From: Escherichia coli
Lineage (GTDB): Bacteria > Pseudomonadota > Gammaproteobacteria > Enterobacterales > Enterobacteriaceae
Direction: 5' to 3' (one strand)
Length of the DNA: 64,000 nucleotides
NCBI RefSeq assembly: GCF_001677475.2
Contig: NZ_CP015229.1
Part shown: in pieces, positions 3,919-39,041 of the stretch
Position numbering within the stretch: position 1 is the stretch's first letter
Layout: every line of letters begins with the position of its first letter
The notes under the pieces: model-generated
Databases searched by the model: none
The model's input: only the letters and a program-made list of their open reading frames with translations
What the model was told of the DNA's origin: nothing
Position numbers and translations under genes: made by a program

Positions 3919-3926
3919 GGATGATG

Positions 3927-3958
3927 CCCGGTTGAAGTGCAACCGGGCTATTTGGATT
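3927..3958 (+). terminator. Rho-independent terminator of glpD
   Basis: Perfect 8-bp stem cccggttg/caaccggg with 5-nt loop, followed by T-rich ctatttggatt, just after the glpD stop. Confidence 0.5.
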
Positions 3959-3969
3959 CCTTAGACTAT

Positions 3970-4575
3970 TTATTGTAAATAATTGAATAACGGCCCCTGA
4001 GCTAAAATCGCCAAACTTAAGCACGTTACCCACTCACCCCATTTCTGCCTCTGGCTTCTATTTTTGCTACACCAATGGCAATAATATCCCAATGCAAAAC
4101 CAACCTGTGCACTAATCGGGCCGACAAAATCAGTCCACGACTGCGGCCAAAAAGGGGAAAAATTCAGGGGAAGCCAGACAAACGTCAGAAAGAAATTTCG
4201 GATATTTTCCAGCAACGCTGATTTCTCTGGAGAAATATAAAGAATGAAATTCGAGAGAATTAACCAGAAATAGACCGGAGAAAAGACCAGCCAGCAATGC
4301 AGTCTGTTTTTTAATTCAGGAGGCGTTCTGCGGGAGAATTGCCAACCGATGCCCCACATTACACTGAAAAAAAATGCATATTCAACCATTAACTCAAGTT
4401 GTAATTCCTGAAGAGAAATACGCACAACCAGGAGCGGAAAGGAGAATGTTATTTCTGCCAGAAAAGTTAACGTGAATATAAGTACGGCTAAGACAATAAC
4501 CGTCGGCCATACCAATACTGGCACGATAACAAAACCGAGAATTACAGGGGGAATATAAAGCCGGAATTTAATCAT
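3970..4575 (-). CDS. Hypothetical small multi-pass membrane protein (island ORF-D), last gene of a four-gene operon
   Basis: 201-aa ORF, several long hydrophobic segments, AT-rich codon usage unlike flanking genes; start 2 nt after the stop of the upstream ORF (translational coupling). Confidence 0.6.
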   Translation of the reverse strand: MIKFRLYIPPVILGFVIVPVLVWPTVIVLAVLIFTLTFLAEITFSFPLLVVRISLQELQLELMVEYAFFFSVMWGIGWQFSRRTPPELKNRLHCWLVFSPVYFWLILSNFILYISPEKSALLENIRNFFLTFVWLPLNFSPFWPQSWTDFVGPISAQVGFALGYYCHWCSKNRSQRQKWGEWVTCLSLAILAQGPLFNYLQ

Positions 4576-4577
4576 TT

Positions 4578-5372
4578 TTATTTTCCTGGTGATTCGGATG
4601 ATGCGTCATACATCGCGCATAAACACTCATCAATCATCCAGTCGTCTACCCAGACCTGATGCTGTGTACCCTGTTCTGGCTGCTTTGGTGGGTTCTCAAT
4701 CGCCTGCCGCGCGCGTTCTTTCAGGATGGATTGATTGTTGAAGGCCCAGGCATTGATTTGGGCGGTAATGGCATTATCGATATCGTCATGGTTATCTCTG
4801 ATATAACCTTCACGATACTGGTTCAATAAACAGGCAAGTGAAGCTGCCGACCAAAAGCCGGGAATTGAATTAACGGCATCAAGCAACGGCGCAATGGCGA
4901 TATCGGCACGGAAAAACATTTCCAGCATATACTGTAATTCGACAGCTTCATCGCCGGATACCCAATCAGCCATATACTGGCAGGCAAATCGCTGCAATAT
5001 TGCCCGTTCATCCGCACGCCAGTTTTCTTTGTTGGCAAGGTTGATACGGCGCAGAGAAAAAACTTCGTGAATATTGTCAAAATACCCCTGTGCAACAAAT
5101 TCCAGTAAACGCGGAAGAAAATAGCGGACCTCATCGCTATTTTGCGGATCGGGTCCTGGGCTACTATTCCAGGCATTGATTAAGGAATACGAGATCGCTC
5201 GTAACGATGTACTCCGTAATACCTTTTGTTCCTGCTGACTCAGGCAATATTCACAACAAACCACAAATTTCTGCGGCACCGGATAGCGACGAAAAATATG
5301 ATAAATCTGCTCAATTAATGCCTGCATGGCGGGGCTGGGTTGCATAATTACCCCCTCGCCCGCTGGTCGCAT
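4578..5372 (-). CDS. Hypothetical protein, no recognisable family (island ORF-C); probably cytoplasmic
   Basis: 264-aa ORF with no TM segments; alternative start at internal Met (about 5345) lies 2 nt downstream of the ORF-B stop; tightly coupled to flanking ORFs. Confidence 0.6.
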   Translation of the reverse strand: MRPAGEGVIMQPSPAMQALIEQIYHIFRRYPVPQKFVVCCEYCLSQQEQKVLRSTSLRAISYSLINAWNSSPGPDPQNSDEVRYFLPRLLEFVAQGYFDNIHEVFSLRRINLANKENWRADERAILQRFACQYMADWVSGDEAVELQYMLEMFFRADIAIAPLLDAVNSIPGFWSAASLACLLNQYREGYIRDNHDDIDNAITAQINAWAFNNQSILKERARQAIENPPKQPEQGTQHQVWVDDWMIDECLCAMYDASSESPGK

Positions 5373-6055
5373 GTAAATGGTTGATAAACCAAACGAGCAT
5401 TCGCCGCATTCAGGCGAATAATGGCACTACGAGAGAGGGAAAAGCTGGGGCGAATGCAATAATTACAGTCCCGACAGCTATCCTCTGTGCAATTTTCCAC
5501 TGAGTAATGACGCGCGTAGAGTTTCAGTTCAGCCTGCTTATCGCGAAATCCGCGTAAACTGTTATCGCTATGAAATTTCCAGGCTTCTTTAAACACCTGA
5601 AAGATATAGACATCCTCAATCCAGGAGTCACATTTTTTAAGCGGGCGCTTTGCTATGATCACCCGCTCCGGGTTTAGCATCGCCGTAAAATGAACGGTGA
5701 AGTCATTTGTCGTATTCAGGTCACATTGAACATCTGGTACATCACTGATATAGGGGTCAAATCCAAAATCAGCACCACAGGCACAAAGACGACCGATCGT
5801 GGTGGTATCGAGGGAAAATCCCGGCCATACATTGCTGGACGTTAAGCCAATATTTAATGTGACATTATATCGAAGCAATCCCTCAAGACCGTCAGCACCG
5901 ACGAACTTTTCCCCTTCATCCAGGACCTGATTAATGAGTTGTTGAACAATACCTTCATCCCAGTATGCCGATTTGCAGTTGGCAATCGTAATATCCACGC
6001 CTGTGAAAGGATCAGTACCAGCGAGGCTTGCAAATAATGTATTAACTAATTCCAT
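5348..6055 (-). CDS. Hypothetical cysteine-cluster protein (island ORF-B), candidate metal or Fe-S binding
   Basis: 235-aa ORF with C-terminal C-x4-C-x2-C-x2-C cluster (NCTEDSCRDCNYC) and further Cys residues; not the CxxxCxxC radical-SAM spacing. Confidence 0.6.
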   Translation of the reverse strand: MELVNTLFASLAGTDPFTGVDITIANCKSAYWDEGIVQQLINQVLDEGEKFVGADGLEGLLRYNVTLNIGLTSSNVWPGFSLDTTTIGRLCACGADFGFDPYISDVPDVQCDLNTTNDFTVHFTAMLNPERVIIAKRPLKKCDSWIEDVYIFQVFKEAWKFHSDNSLRGFRDKQAELKLYARHYSVENCTEDSCRDCNYCIRPSFSLSRSAIIRLNAANARLVYQPFTCDQRARG

Positions 6056-6069
6056 TTTTATTACCCGCC

Positions 6070-7587
6070 TTAATGCAACGTTTTATACATCGGCACATAA
6101 CCCACGTCTTCTACCAAACTCTGCCCCTGCGGCGTTAAAAACCATTCAACCAGTTTTTGTGTTTCTGACGTCATATTTTCCCGCGTTACCATAAAGGCAT
6201 CGACGATATAGGGATATTTGCCATTGCGAATGTTTTCCGCAGTCGGTGCAATACCGTTAATCGCTAACAATTTGATATTCTTATCGGCATTCATTTGTGT
6301 TGCGTAATAGCGGAAGGTATAACCTATTGCGTTGTTTGTATTACGGTATTCGGCAACGACTTTAATCATTCCCTCCATCACACTTGCCACTTCGGTTTCC
6401 TGCGGCGAGATCATACGGACATTTTTCATGACCTGTAATTGCATCACCGTCTGACTGCCAGAGTCTTCCGGGCGTTGCCAGGTCTGGATCTCCTGATCGT
6501 TACCGCCAACAGTACGCCAGTTGGTAATTGCGCCACTAAAAATGTCTCGCACTTGTTGTTCAGTCAGGGAATTGACTGGATTATCAGCATTGACGATAAA
6601 AACAAATGCTTCACGGGCAAAGGGGGTGTACAGCAAAGTGACACCAGATTCCTTTGCACGTTTTTTCTGCCCACCGGAAGGTTGCGCCACGAAAATAATA
6701 TCAGCATCACCCTTAACGATTTTGTTATATGCTTCTGGCGTACGAGAGTTATCCAGATAATCCCAAACGTGAAAATCCTCTGGTATTATGCTTAACGCAT
6801 AAAAGGCAGAAGCATAAATTGGGTACGCCGCCGTGGCACCATCGATTCGCGGCCAGTTTTGCGTAAACTGAATTTGCGGTTTGCCACGCAGCGGCGTCAG
6901 TCGATTATTGAGTTTATCGGGTCGCCAGGCCCAGATATCAATATTTTCGCGTACACCAACACCAGGGTTTTGCTGCTTATATAAATGGGCCTGATACCCA
7001 GCGACAATACCAAGTAAGAGAAGTAGAAACAGGAGTAAGTTACGGCAACGTAGCCCGGACGTGCCGGTTAAAGGATGCCTTGTCGGCCAGCCGTATCCCA
7101 GCGAAAAACTGATATGCGTTCCAACGGGAATAATGACTATCCACCAGTACTCACCACCGACTAATGAGACTAACAAAACACCCAGCCAGGGAAGCATAAG
7201 ATCTGCCAACCAACCTGAAACCATCTGGCGAAATTGATAATCTGCCAGATGTAGCGTGATTATCCAGCCAACCAGGATTAATAAAGCAGGAACTAAAAAA
7301 AGACATTGTCGCCAGGCGGCTATTTCTCTGTTTTCTGGTGCGCTATCGCCCGCCCACACTCGCCCAGAGAAAAATAGCAGTAATGCGCCCAGCGTCAGCA
7401 TAAAGACGTTAAGTAGAAGATAAATTGTTGGCGTAAAGAGTAAATTGCAAAACTCAAGAATAGCGGCAAGCCCGGCCCCCAGCATGGCAATAACCGCCGC
7501 CAAAAACTGCGCCAGAATGGGGATGCCGAAAAAAGTCATTACCAGCGAGGTCAAAATCCATTTTCTGTTTTGCATTATTCTTTCCAT
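6070..7587 (-). CDS. Polytopic membrane protein fused to a PstS-like (type-2 periplasmic binding protein) phosphate/oxyanion-binding domain (island ORF-A)
   Basis: 505-aa ORF; N-terminal ~200 aa with about 6 hydrophobic helices; C-terminal ~280 aa with PstS-like motifs (AAYPIYASAF, DADIIFVAQPSGG, RPEDSGSQ, NAIGYTFRYYA); possible alternative start 4 codons downstream. Confidence 0.65.
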   Translation of the reverse strand: MERIMQNRKWILTSLVMTFFGIPILAQFLAAVIAMLGAGLAAILEFCNLLFTPTIYLLLNVFMLTLGALLLFFSGRVWAGDSAPENREIAAWRQCLFLVPALLILVGWIITLHLADYQFRQMVSGWLADLMLPWLGVLLVSLVGGEYWWIVIIPVGTHISFSLGYGWPTRHPLTGTSGLRCRNLLLFLLLLLGIVAGYQAHLYKQQNPGVGVRENIDIWAWRPDKLNNRLTPLRGKPQIQFTQNWPRIDGATAAYPIYASAFYALSIIPEDFHVWDYLDNSRTPEAYNKIVKGDADIIFVAQPSGGQKKRAKESGVTLLYTPFAREAFVFIVNADNPVNSLTEQQVRDIFSGAITNWRTVGGNDQEIQTWQRPEDSGSQTVMQLQVMKNVRMISPQETEVASVMEGMIKVVAEYRNTNNAIGYTFRYYATQMNADKNIKLLAINGIAPTAENIRNGKYPYIVDAFMVTRENMTSETQKLVEWFLTPQGQSLVEDVGYVPMYKTLH

Positions 7588-19232: not shown

Positions 19233-19288
19233 CGAGGAGCGTTTTTCGAAAAGAGCCCGGTAGCGTCACAACTACCGGGCGAACAAAC

Positions 19289-20629
19289 TTAACTCAACAG
19301 CTGGAAAGCAATCATCCCAACGATGGCACCGACAGTGCCGAGGATGGTTTCCATCATGGTCCAGGTTTTCAGTGTTTCGGCTTCAGTCGCGCCGGTAAAT
19401 TTACCGAACAACCAGAAACCGGCGTCGTTAACGTGGCTGACAACAATCGAACCACCGGCGATACAAATCGACAGCGCCGCCATTTGCGCACCGGAGTAGT
19501 TCAGTTGTTCAATAACCGGCATCACCAGTCCCACCGCCGTTAAACAGGCAACGGTGGCAGAACCCTGAATGATGCGCACTGCAGCTGCCAGCACGAAGCA
19601 GGTGATGGCAATCGGCAGGCCCATGCCGGTTAACGCTTCGCCCAGTGCCGGACCTACGCCAGAGTCAACCAGCACCTGTTTGAACACGCCGCCTGCACCA
19701 ATCACCAGCAGAATGATCCCCGCCGGTTGCAGCGCGTGACCACAAATTTCCATCACTTTGTCTTTTGGCATGCCCTGACGCATTGCCAGGCCATAAATTG
19801 CTACCAGACAAGCAACCAGAATCGCAGTAAACGGATGACCGATAAACTCAAACCATTCGTAAGCAGTTGATCCTTCTGGTACAAAACGCGCGGCAATGGT
19901 TTTAAGCCCTACCAGTACCAGCGGCAGCAGGATCAGCGACAGGCTAAATCCGAAAGATGGCATTTTGCCTTCACCGAGATGCGGTTCGCTGATGTCGTCA
20001 GGAATATGCAGCTCAACGTAACGGCTGATGAAGTTACCCCACAGCGGCCCGGCAATAATCATTCCCGGAATTGCCGCACACAGGCCAATCAGGATCATCC
20101 AGCCAAAATCGGCGTTCATCTGCGATGCCAGCAGCATTGGCGCAGGTCCAGGCACCAGGAATGCCGCCGCTGCCGCCACGCCTGCGAATAATGGGATTAC
20201 AAGCTTCACCAGGTTCGTACCGGTGTGGCGCGCCATTGAGAAAGCAACGCTAATCAGCAGAACAATCGCCACTTCAAAGAACAGCGGTAGTGCACAGACC
20301 AGCCCCGCAAGGCCGATGGCATAATGCGCGCGGCTGTGACCGAAGGATTTGAGCATTTTGACGGCAATCTGATCGACTGCGCCGGTTTCATGTAAGATCT
20401 TGCCAAACATAGCTCCCAGGGCGACAACCACCGCCAGGAAGCCGAGGGTGCCTCCCATCCCTTTTTCCATCGTCGCTGCGATTTTATCGAGCGGCATACC
20501 GGAAAAAAGGCCAGCCCCCATGGACACCACCATTAAAGCCAGGAAAGCGTGCATACGCGCCTTCATGACTAAAAACAGCAGCAGTAAAACAGACCCTACT
20601 GCTGTTAAAACAAGCGTTAATGTAGTCAC
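19289..20629 (-). CDS. gntU: Low-affinity gluconate:H+ symporter GntU
   Basis: 446-aa polytopic GntP-family ORF; start codon reads as GTG on the minus strand. Confidence 0.9.
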   Translation of the reverse strand: MTTLTLVLTAVGSVLLLLFLVMKARMHAFLALMVVSMGAGLFSGMPLDKIAATMEKGMGGTLGFLAVVVALGAMFGKILHETGAVDQIAVKMLKSFGHSRAHYAIGLAGLVCALPLFFEVAIVLLISVAFSMARHTGTNLVKLVIPLFAGVAAAAAFLVPGPAPMLLASQMNADFGWMILIGLCAAIPGMIIAGPLWGNFISRYVELHIPDDISEPHLGEGKMPSFGFSLSLILLPLVLVGLKTIAARFVPEGSTAYEWFEFIGHPFTAILVACLVAIYGLAMRQGMPKDKVMEICGHALQPAGIILLVIGAGGVFKQVLVDSGVGPALGEALTGMGLPIAITCFVLAAAVRIIQGSATVACLTAVGLVMPVIEQLNYSGAQMAALSICIAGGSIVVSHVNDAGFWLFGKFTGATEAETLKTWTMMETILGTVGAIVGMIAFQLLS

Positions 20630-20632
20630 TAC

Positions 20633-21160
20633 TTATTTGCCTTTTTTAATAACCTCGATGGTGCTTGCCACAACACCTTCCAGCGGTTGATCGATATCCA
20701 CCACCAGTACATCGGTTTCGTCCGCACCCGGCTCCTGCAGCGTTTCAAACTGCGTCACCAACATTTGGGTTTTAAAGAAATGGCCTTTGCGCGCTTTCAG
20801 GCGGCTTTCAATCACATCAAAATCGCCTTTCAGGTAGATGAACGAGAGATTCGGATTACCTTCACGCAGCAAGTCGCGATAGTGTTTTTTCAGTGCAGAA
20901 CAGACGATCAGCGACACTTTATTGGTGCGCTGCATAGCAAACGCGGCGTCGTTCAGCGCCTGCAACCACGGTTTGCGATCGTCGTCATTCAGCGGTTCAC
21001 CAGACGCCATTTTTTCGATATTGCGCCGTGGATGGAGGAAATCGCCATCAAGAAACGCGGCATGAAGTTGATGCGCCACTTCACTGGCGACCGCAGATTT
21101 GCCGCTGCCCGATACGCCCATCAGAACGTAAATGTGGTGATCATGGTTAGTCGTGCTCAA
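20633..21160 (-). CDS. gntK: Thermoresistant gluconokinase GntK
   Basis: Walker A GVSGSGKS; conserved N-terminus (M)STTNHDHH begins at a TTG codon 7 codons inside the track ORF; 175 aa. Confidence 0.85.
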   Translation of the reverse strand: MSTTNHDHHIYVLMGVSGSGKSAVASEVAHQLHAAFLDGDFLHPRRNIEKMASGEPLNDDDRKPWLQALNDAAFAMQRTNKVSLIVCSALKKHYRDLLREGNPNLSFIYLKGDFDVIESRLKARKGHFFKTQMLVTQFETLQEPGADETDVLVVDIDQPLEGVVASTIEVIKKGK

Positions 21161-21192
21161 AGTGGTGCCCCCACAATACAAGAATTAAAAAT

Positions 21193-21222
21193 GTTACGGG
21201 TAACTGTTATCGGTAACATTGT
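21193..21222. promoter_or_regulatory. GntR operator(s) in the gntKU promoter
   Basis: Two adjacent palindromic motifs atgttacgggtaac / gttatcggtaacat just upstream of gntK. Confidence 0.5.
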
Positions 21223-21298
21223 CCAGCCGGACAATATCAGAAGCAATATCCATCCGTGCCTTAAGTGTATAAGTGTGAGCTACTTCAAATTTGTAGGC

Positions 21299-22294
21299 TT
21301 AAATAGATCCGCCCGGTGACAAGGTGAAACCTAAATCTAACATTTTCGGTGTCACAGATTCGCCACGAATACGCGCCAGCAGGCGTTCAGCGCCAATACT
21401 GCCCATCCGCTCACGCGGCGTCAGTACGCTCGCCAACCGTGGTTCCATCACCTGACCAATGTCATGACCATGGAAACCGGCAATCGCCATATCGTCAGGA
21501 ACTTTCAACCCCAGACGCTGGCATTCAAACGCCGCGCCGACTGCCAGGTCATCATTAGTACAGAACACGCCATCCAGCTGCGGATATTCCCGCCTCGCCT
21601 GGCGAATCAGTTCAATACCGGAAGAGTAAGAAGAAGATTGCTCAACCATCACGCTATATGGCACCAGGCCTGCATCCAGCATCGCCTGTTCGTATCCCTT
21701 CTGTTTGATGATAGTACGTTCGTCGAGACGTGCGCCGAGATAGGCAATGTGGCGATGCCCGCGAGCAATAATGGCGGTGGTCATCTGCCGTGCCGCTTCA
21801 AAGTTATCAAAACCGACGGCGATATCGAGGCACGGCGACTGGCTGTCCATCAACTCCACCACCGGGATCCCCGCCACTTCAATCATCTTTAAGGTGCGCG
21901 GCGTGTGGGTACGTTCGGTGAGGATCAGTCCGTCGATATTCCATGAGAGCATTGATTCGAGGCGTTCTTGCTCCATTTCCGGTTTATAACCGTAGTGGGC
22001 CAGCATGGTCTGATAACCGTGCGCGTCGGTGACGCTTTCGATTCCGCGTAATACTTCCGCGAAAACCTGGTTGGTGAGAGAAGGTAACAGGACGCCAATC
22101 GCCCGGCTGGTGGCGTTAGAGAGGATATCGGGCGCACGATTGGGAATATAGCCCAGTTCATCAAGAGCGGCGGCAATCTTGCCGCGTAGAGCGACGGAAA
22201 CCTGCTCCGGGTTGCGTAAAAAACGGCTGACCGTCATTTTGGTCACGCCTACACGGTCAGCCACATCCTGAAGTACGGGTCTTTTCTTTTTCAT
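21299..22294 (-). CDS. gntR: LacI-family gluconate repressor GntR
   Basis: 331-aa ORF; N-terminal HTH (VTKMTVSRFLRNP) plus periplasmic-binding-like effector domain. Confidence 0.95.
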   Translation of the reverse strand: MKKKRPVLQDVADRVGVTKMTVSRFLRNPEQVSVALRGKIAAALDELGYIPNRAPDILSNATSRAIGVLLPSLTNQVFAEVLRGIESVTDAHGYQTMLAHYGYKPEMEQERLESMLSWNIDGLILTERTHTPRTLKMIEVAGIPVVELMDSQSPCLDIAVGFDNFEAARQMTTAIIARGHRHIAYLGARLDERTIIKQKGYEQAMLDAGLVPYSVMVEQSSSYSSGIELIRQARREYPQLDGVFCTNDDLAVGAAFECQRLGLKVPDDMAIAGFHGHDIGQVMEPRLASVLTPRERMGSIGAERLLARIRGESVTPKMLDLGFTLSPGGSI

Positions 22295-25194: not shown

Positions 25195-25221
25195 AGAATT
25201 TGCAATATAAGTTTGTCATTT

Positions 25222-25248
25222 AAGCCCTCACCTACCGGGAGAGGGCTT
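25222..25248. terminator. Bidirectional terminator hairpin shared by convergent yhhY and ggt
   Basis: 8-bp stem aagccctc/gagggctt with 11-nt loop in the 60-bp gap between the two stops. Confidence 0.45.
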
Positions 25249-25254
25249 AAGATA

Positions 25255-38148: not shown

Positions 38149-38532
38149 ATGAAGCTGACCATCATTCGATTAGAAAAATTTAGCGACCAGGACCGGATTG
38201 ACCTGCAAAAGATCTGGCCGGAGTATTCCCCTTCCTCGTTACAGGTTGACGATAACCACCGTATCTACGCCGCGCGTTTTAACGAGCGCCTGCTCGCTGC
38301 CGTACGGGTAACCTTAAGCGGCACCGAGGGAGCACTGGATTCCCTGCGCGTGCGGGAAGTCACTCGACGTCGCGGTGTGGGGCAATATCTGCTGGAAGAG
38401 GTTTTGCGTAACAATCCTGGCGTTTCATGCTGGTGGATGGCGGATGCAGGCGTGGAAGATCGCGGTGTGATGACGGCGTTTATGCAGGCACTGGGATTTA
38501 CGGCACAGCAGGGCGGCTGGGAGAAGCGTTAA
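38149..38532 (+). CDS. panM: PanD maturation factor PanM/PanZ (GNAT fold)
   Basis: 127-aa ORF; divergent from livK. Confidence 0.85.
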   Translation: MKLTIIRLEKFSDQDRIDLQKIWPEYSPSSLQVDDNHRIYAARFNERLLAAVRVTLSGTEGALDSLRVREVTRRRGVGQYLLEEVLRNNPGVSCWWMADAGVEDRGVMTAFMQALGFTAQQGGWEKR

Positions 38533-38711
38533 TCGCTCTGTGTAAAAAGCAGTTCAATGGATTTGGTTGGGAAAAATAACGCATTTTCGTTTTCCCCGAC
38601 TAAAGGGATAAAGCCCAGCGATTTATAAAACGTATGGGCTTTTTCATTCAGCGCCTCGACAAAAAGACCGTGAATACCTACCGCTAAAGAGGCTGACCAG
38701 ACGACTTTCAT
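38529..38711 (-). pseudogene. C-terminal remnant of a GNAT-family (TacT/AtaT-like) tRNA-acetylating toxin; N-terminal ~100 codons absent
   Basis: 60-aa ORF whose sequence aligns by eye to the C-terminal third of GNAT toxins (e.g. TacT); lies in frame directly after the antitoxin stop. Confidence 0.5.
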
Positions 38712-38732
38712 GGCATGAGCAACAACTAGCGT

Positions 38733-39041
38733 TCAATCACCAGTTATCCCGGAAAACACCTCAAGTTGTTTTGCTGAGCGTTGTAATTTTTCGCCAGGTG
38801 AAGGCGATTTACCCAGTGCATCCATCACTCGCGCCCATGAAGTCTCATTAAGTATTATGCGCTGATGTTGTTCAATAATTTCTAACGCCTGCAGGTGAGC
38901 GCTACTCAATATAAACTGGCTTAAGGACTGTTGGGATATCGCAGCTGCCGTTTCAAACAAACATTTATCATCATCAGTTAAAGACAGCGCAATATGCTGA
39001 TTTTCAACAACAGACATAGTGATTTCCCTTCCACTCATCAA
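38733..39041 (-). CDS. DUF1778-family (TacA/AtaR-like) antitoxin, apparently intact; start may be an internal Met
   Basis: 102-aa ORF with the DUF1778 pattern (ALSLTDDDKCLFETAAAISQQSLSQFILSSA...); canonical position upstream of a GNAT toxin. Confidence 0.55.
   Translation of the reverse strand: MMSGREITMSVVENQHIALSLTDDDKCLFETAAAISQQSLSQFILSSAHLQALEIIEQHQRIILNETSWARVMDALGKSPSPGEKLQRSAKQLEVFSGITGD

Follow-up and report, generated by a model that had tools for sequence, protein, structure and literature searches.

The window (the whole stretch of Escherichia coli DNA analyzed here, 64,000 nt) carries an E. coli-type gntRKU locus in which, with a probability that we put at roughly 90%, the TTG of gntK and the GTG of gntU are genuine annotated starts that are selectively kept and that probably limit and link the amounts of kinase and transporter. 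All three genes lie on the minus strand within positions 19289..22294 (Table 1), with yhgN and asd on one side and yhhW and yhhX on the other. The same genes flank the gntRKU locus (GntI system) of K-12 (NC_000913.3), which also shares the gene order, both proteins, the TTG and GTG starts and the 3-nt gap between gntK and gntU. The window differs from K-12 in strain-level nucleotide divergence only (about 97–98% identity), and in nothing at the start codons. RefSeq starts gntK at TTG and gntU at GTG, 3 nt past the gntK stop, in both K-12 MG1655 and strain 7/2. The two starts are thus already known from the standard K-12 annotation and are an ordinary feature of it.

Table 1. Positions of the gntRKU genes, start codons and associated signals in the window
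Feature	Coordinates	Strand	Remarks
gntR CDS	21299..22294	-	ATG start
Tandem palindrome-like ATGTTACCGATAACA / AGTTACCCGTAACAT	21191..21219	-	Upstream of gntK; putative GntR operator, read from the sequence
Upstream in-frame TTG	21179..21181	-	Opens the longest ORF; rejected as gntK start
gntK Shine-Dalgarno GGGGG	21168..21172	-	7-nt spacer to TTG 21160
gntK initiation codon TTG	21158..21160	-	RefSeq start, orthologue conservation, Shine-Dalgarno
First in-frame ATG of gntK (Met14)	21119..21121	-	Choice of an ATG-only caller; rejected
gntK CDS	20633..21160	-	Gluconokinase, 175 aa plus TAA stop; 100% identical to K-12 b3437
AAGGC, weak Shine-Dalgarno of gntU	20639..20643	-	Within the last gntK codons; near-invariant in orthologues
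gntK stop TAA	20633..20635	-	3 nt upstream of the gntU start, same frame
gntU initiation codon GTG	20627..20629	-	RefSeq start; no earlier start possible downstream of the in-frame stop
Terminator-like hairpin AACAGCAGUAG / CUGCUGCUGUU plus T5 run	20571..20606	-	gntU codons 8–20; terminator scan
First in-frame ATG of gntU (Met22)	20564..20566	-	No Shine-Dalgarno; rejected
gntU CDS	19289..20629	-	Low-affinity gluconate transporter, 446 aa; 100% identical to K-12 b4476
Intrinsic terminator, operon end after gntU	19255..19280	-	10-bp stem with 7 GC pairs, then TCTTTT

The identity of both proteins is supported by family profiles. GntK matches the NCBIfam equivalog NF008583 over residues 1–174 (373.6 bits, cutoff 265) and the GntK/IdnK subfamily profile TIGR01313 over residues 11–173 (241.7 bits, cutoff 113.75), and it has a P-loop, GVSGSGKS, at residues 15–22 (pattern GxxGxGK[ST]). 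GntU, by its profile matches a gluconate:H+ symporter of the GntP family, aligns with the GntU equivalog NF007781 over 1–446 of 446 residues (915.8 bits, cutoff 625) and with the Pfam family PF02447 (GntP_permease) over residues 5–441, where profile position 2 falls at residue 5; position 1 of TIGR00791 falls at residue 4. Chain A of PDB entry 1KNQ is GntK, with 100% identity over residues 1–175, and its sequence opens with MSTTNHDHH. This agrees with the TTG start but is no proof of the native start, because the entry is a recombinant construct. A 1-kb query covering the gntR-gntK-gntU junctions matched 5,424 of 5,426 complete E. coli genomes at 95–99.2% identity, and the matching genes were always annotated as gntR, gntK and gntU.

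Read on the minus strand, the start of gntK is ...GTGGGGGCACCACT TTG AGC ACG ACT AAC CAT GAT..., which gives (M)STTNHDHH. The nearest in-frame stop lies 27 nt upstream of TTG 21160, and the candidate starts are TTG 21181, TTG 21160 and ATG 21121 (Met14). TTG 21160 has the sole good Shine-Dalgarno (SD) sequence near any candidate start, with a duplex energy of −8.4 kcal/mol with the 3′ tail of the 16S rRNA; the other two gntK candidates are without an SD (+0.5 kcal/mol for TTG 21181 and +0.6 kcal/mol for ATG 21121). As in other genuine near-cognate starts, conservation of the protein begins at this codon, the SD is appropriately spaced, and start codons interchange at this position in orthologues. 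For gntU, the minus strand at the junction reads ...AAA GGC AAA TAA GTA GTG ACT ACA TTA..., corresponding to (M)TTLTL. GTG 20629 is the first possible gntU start because the gntK TAA is in frame two codons upstream. The AAGG in front of it has a duplex energy of −3.2 kcal/mol and a spacer of about 10 nt. Here too the pattern is that of a near-cognate start, with GntP profiles that begin at residues 4–5, a weak conserved SD and interchange of GTG and TTG. Both starts were placed by sequence comparison, profiles, SD energies and annotation.

Comparison with related species gave the same two starts. We aligned 80 Enterobacteriaceae loci from species-representative genomes, with 90–99% GntK protein identity and 76–98% gntK DNA identity, from genera that include Escherichia, Salmonella, Citrobacter, Klebsiella, Raoultella, Enterobacter, Kosakonia, Kluyvera, Leclercia and Lelliottia. 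In this set, in which related species are not independent samples, the codon homologous to gntK 21160 is TTG in 77 of 80 loci and ATG in three (Yokenella, Trabulsiella and Buttiauxella), and the codon homologous to the gntU start is GTG in 61, TTG in 19 and ATG in none. No sense (non-start) codon occurs at either position in the 80 species. Downstream of the gntK start the residues STTNHDHH[IV]YVLM are kept, whereas the DNA upstream diverges with indels. A purine block (GGGGG, GGGAG, GGAGG or GAGGG) is found at a fixed distance from the gntK start in the 80 loci, and one of its G residues is invariant (80/80). The sequence-only reading had placed the GntK start at TTG and the GntU start at GTG on the minus strand and had named orthologue alignment as a check. 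Both starts are confirmed by this alignment, and they are borne out as well by identity with K-12 and by the RefSeq starts.

The gntU count takes in two loci, from Citrobacter amalonaticus AUH_CA_2023_1 and Enterobacter sp. EA-1, by their conserved start and despite downstream frameshifts. In both, the gntU frame is broken within the first ~60 codons and the conserved start and N-terminal codons are kept; these may be pseudogenes or assembly errors.

We also checked the start codons within E. coli using 41-nt queries centered on the first base of each start, a design in which a central mismatch leaves no 28-nt megablast seed. Of 5,426 complete E. coli genomes, 5,416 had an exact match to the gntK query with TTG, and no genome matched the versions with ATG or GTG. 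The gntU query matched exactly in 5,375 of these genomes when it carried GTG, in one when it carried TTG and in none of the 5,426 when it carried ATG.

The alternative that survives best accepts both starts but takes their non-ATG codons to be selectively neutral accidents, with the promoter, GntR, CRP and the SD alone determining expression. We regard this as possible, though unlikely. In its favor, GTG and TTG start about 18% of annotated bacterial genes (ATG 81.8%, GTG 13.8%, TTG 4.35%; 10.1101/063800), and the codon can change, between GTG and TTG among genera in gntU and to ATG in three species in gntK. The "rare" start codons of the sequence-only reading are therefore not so in the case of GTG, which accounts for about 14% of bacterial starts. 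In the 50 kb of K-12 around the locus, ATG starts 44 of 47 CDS, the exceptions being gntK, gntU and insA6; the TTG/GTG pair is locally unusual, yet it is expected many times per genome because non-ATG starts are common. There is also no pathway-wide logic to the choice. The same reading had treated non-ATG starts as a property of gluconate catabolic genes, but a general feature of this kind is ruled out by ten other gluconate, idonate and Entner-Doudoroff genes of K-12 (gntR, gntT, gntP, idnK, idnD, idnO, idnT, idnR, edd and eda), all of which start with ATG.

Other observations argue against neutrality. Across the 48 four-fold sites of gntK whose amino acid is invariant, the major allele has a median frequency of 0.66, and just one site is as conserved as the T of the gntK TTG (77/80), so the first base of this start is more conserved than 47 of the 48, although the C two bases before the TTG (position −2) is also invariant and the conservation of the T could reflect another constraint. 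ATG is never found at gntU in the 80 species, nor at either gene in the 5,426 E. coli genomes, though ATGA and TAATG overlaps would be equally feasible. Moreover, selection can act on start codons of this kind, as experiments on lacI have shown (PMC11445065). From the conservation of the T in gntK and the total lack of ATG at gntU, we argue that the weak start codons are maintained.

Could the true starts instead be the first in-frame ATGs (GntK Met14 at 21121 and GntU Met22 at 20566), with the TTG and GTG as ordinary upstream codons? ATG is the commonest start and both are in frame, but we consider this reading extremely improbable. Neither ATG has an SD. The residues that precede them are conserved as protein, STTNHDHH[IV]YVLM in GntK and [ST]TLTLVLTAVGSVLLLLFLV in GntU, and the family profiles extend into them (TIGR01313 begins at residue 11, TIGR00791 at residue 4). 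Because position 1 of TIGR01313 corresponds to residue 11, a start at Met14 would remove the first part of the conserved core, immediately ahead of the P-loop; a start at Met22 would remove residues 1–21 of GntU, whose N-terminal residues are invariant in orthologues as (M)[ST]TLTLVLTAVGSV. In addition, three species have an ATG at the exact position of the gntK TTG, and when the paralogues IdnK and GntT are aligned with the N-terminal segments of GntK and GntU, the match begins at the ATG of each paralogue. The family profiles, the protein conservation and the absent SDs rule out the internal ATGs.

Just as hard to credit is the longest-ORF rule, under which gntK would start at TTG 21181..21179 and encode a 182-aa protein. 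This TTG is the first start codon of the ORF, and some of the species have an in-frame TTG at −21 or −18 nt, but it has no SD and is not conserved, which rules it out. The position of the upstream TTG is unfixed (−15, −18, −21 or −27 nt), and it is absent in many species; in 36 of the 80 loci the stretch from the nearest upstream stop to the conserved gntK TTG contains no in-frame start codon (ATG, GTG or TTG). The sequence upstream of TTG 21160 evolves with indels like non-coding DNA, the longer protein would overlap the region that supplies the gntK SD and spacer, and RefSeq and the PDB entry have a 175-aa GntK. The span given for the feature in the sequence-only reading (20633-21183) has an upper bound that matches the longest ORF, whereas gntK actually begins at 21160, 21 nt inside the start of that ORF. 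At the other end, the span stops with the final base of the gntK stop codon (20633), and the gntU GTG at 20629 falls just outside it.

The tandem palindrome-like sequences that precede gntK may be GntR operators of the gnt regulon, and most of the 80 species loci have GTTACCCGTAAC in front of gntK. A scan for the sigma-70 consensus gave no promoter on the minus strand upstream of this gene.

The two genes lie in close stop–start contact. In 74 of 80 species the distance between the gntK stop and the gntU start is −4 to +3 nt. In detail, 22 species have a 4-nt overlap (GTGA), 27 have a 1-nt overlap (TAGTG) and 25 have a 3-nt gap, and the distance is 12–18 nt in the other six. Because the junction types vary, the relative frame of gntK and gntU shifts among species, and the start codon stays fixed. 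The AAGGC sequence, 9–10 nt before the gntU start, is read in differing gntK frames across species (K-G-K, K-R-Q and K-G-S). Among 75 distinct sequences its A, G, G and C columns are nonetheless invariant and its first A is at least 90% conserved. Near-invariance despite the different frames points to selection on AAGGC as nucleotides, probably as the ribosome-binding site of gntU.

Conserved stop–start proximity of this kind is characteristic of translationally coupled pairs, and the geometry suggests that translation of gntU is probably coupled to that of gntK. As in coupled pairs of the ATGA/TAATG type, the gntK stop overlaps or abuts the gntU start and only a weak SD is present. The difference is that the restart codon of gntU is always GTG or TTG, whereas the usual one is ATG. 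Since its own SD is weak and the GUG lies 3 nt past the gntK UAA, most gntU initiation is probably coupled.

For the TTG and GTG starts, whose positions, SD contexts, conservation and stop–start geometry are established above, we propose the following mechanism, of which the reduced efficiency, the coupling and the selective reason are what we infer. The GGGGG SD would recruit the ribosome to the gntK UUG at 21160..21158, where fMet-tRNA on a near-cognate UUG would be expected to give several-fold less initiation than on AUG. The gntU GUG at 20629..20627 would then be served mostly by ribosomes finishing gntK, either by termination–reinitiation or through local unfolding of the mRNA. Under selection, these weak starts would probably lower and link the output of GntK and GntU from the gluconate-induced gntKU mRNA. 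Translational tuning, which the sequence-only reading had suggested for rare start codons in gluconate genes, is plausible for the gntK–gntU pair specifically.

A terminator scan flagged a hairpin inside gntU, with an 11-bp stem that is present in both the MFE and centroid folds. It combines a stable stem with a U-run, as intrinsic terminators do. The T5 run, which is formed by a Phe codon (TTT) and a Leu codon (TTR) and involves synonymous positions, is kept in 77 of 81 sequences, with a median hairpin energy of −16.4 kcal/mol; it is absent in Salmonella and two other lineages. When pairs were counted in two registers, 93.5% of cells were paired with 0 double-sided changes, and shuffles matched the observed values. 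Registers slid by 3 columns still pair in about 84% of cells, and the whole-segment fold has a z-score of −1.7. Covariation is thus uninformative on this hairpin, because there are no compensatory changes and CTG repeats let slid registers pair. Izu et al., in 1997, reportedly described partial termination at the beginning of gntU, and the hairpin may be the attenuator of the older gntRKU literature. The stop–start arrangement of gntU and this hairpin are more informative anatomy than the start codons considered by the sequence-only reading, in which both were absent.

A bolder reading, which we consider doubtful, joins the weak starts, the coupling and the hairpin (25–55 nt inside gntU) into one device that sets the GntK:GntU ratio. 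In such a device, re-initiation at the gntU GUG and translation of codons 8–20 would control the formation of the hairpin and U-run behind RNA polymerase. How efficiently the weak start works would thereby determine the proportion of transcripts with gntK only to those with gntKU, and hence the ratio of kinase to transporter. Selection against ATG would follow, in keeping with its count at gntU (0/80 species) and at either gene (0/5,426 E. coli genomes).

The closest precedent for maintained weak starts is lacI. GTG and TTG give roughly 8- to 12-fold less expression than ATG (PMC11445065), and a context-dependent role in gut fitness has been demonstrated for the GTG start of lacI (Cherrak et al., 2024, Nat Microbiol, PMC11445065). 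Enterobacterial sugar regulators are enriched for non-ATG starts in that study, which makes no mention of gluconate genes (PMC11445065). The gntKU starts resemble that of lacI in that a near-cognate codon starts an enterobacterial carbohydrate gene, is conserved across genera and is proposed to hold the protein at a sub-maximal level. They differ in that lacI encodes a regulator and its effect was shown in vitro and in the mouse gut, whereas gntK and gntU encode an enzyme and a transporter and are known from sequence; the regulator of the gnt locus, gntR, itself starts with ATG.

Our comparison adds that TTG at gntK and GTG or TTG at gntU are held across Enterobacteriaceae and fixed in E. coli. 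It also brings an enzyme–transporter pair into the argument that near-cognate starts of sugar-utilization genes are selected and are no accident. Because gluconate is an important E. coli nutrient in the gut, gntKU would be a convenient test case. A text search of the literature on gntK with TTG, start codon or attenuation returned nothing on E. coli start sites. Entries for gntK and gntU are absent from the supplement text of TetRP (PMC4909307), TRAINSPOTTER (PMC13245402) and a 3′-end mapping study (PMC7815308), possibly because the operon is uninduced without gluconate.

The practical importance of the two starts is small. The warning that ATG-only gene callers will mis-start these genes holds in principle, as such a caller would choose Met14 for GntK and Met22 for GntU. 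In practice mis-starting is no problem, because the RefSeq/PGAP annotations inspected already use TTG and GTG. No re-annotation is called for, since the reference annotation has the correct starts.

Elsewhere in the window we noted three differences from K-12. At 25195-25254, the K-12 segment yhhZ-yrhA::IS1-yrhD-yrhB (about 3.4 kb) is missing, and about 60 nt lie between the flanking homologous blocks. Between glpD and glgP, about 3.4 kb (3919-7352) is without a K-12 counterpart, K-12 having only the small yzgL there. This segment has four ORFs, all on the minus strand (3970..4575, 4578..5372, 5348..6055 and 6070..7587); of the four, only the one of 505 aa has a Pfam match, a PBP_like_2 periplasmic-binding domain (E 6e-30). 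Between panZ and livJ, at 38529-39041 on the minus strand, there is an insertion that K-12 lacks, of about 750 nt. A 102-aa ORF in this insertion matches the TacA1-like antitoxin family (E 1e-17), and after it comes a 60-aa ORF without a Pfam match that is possibly a remnant of the partner acetyltransferase toxin.
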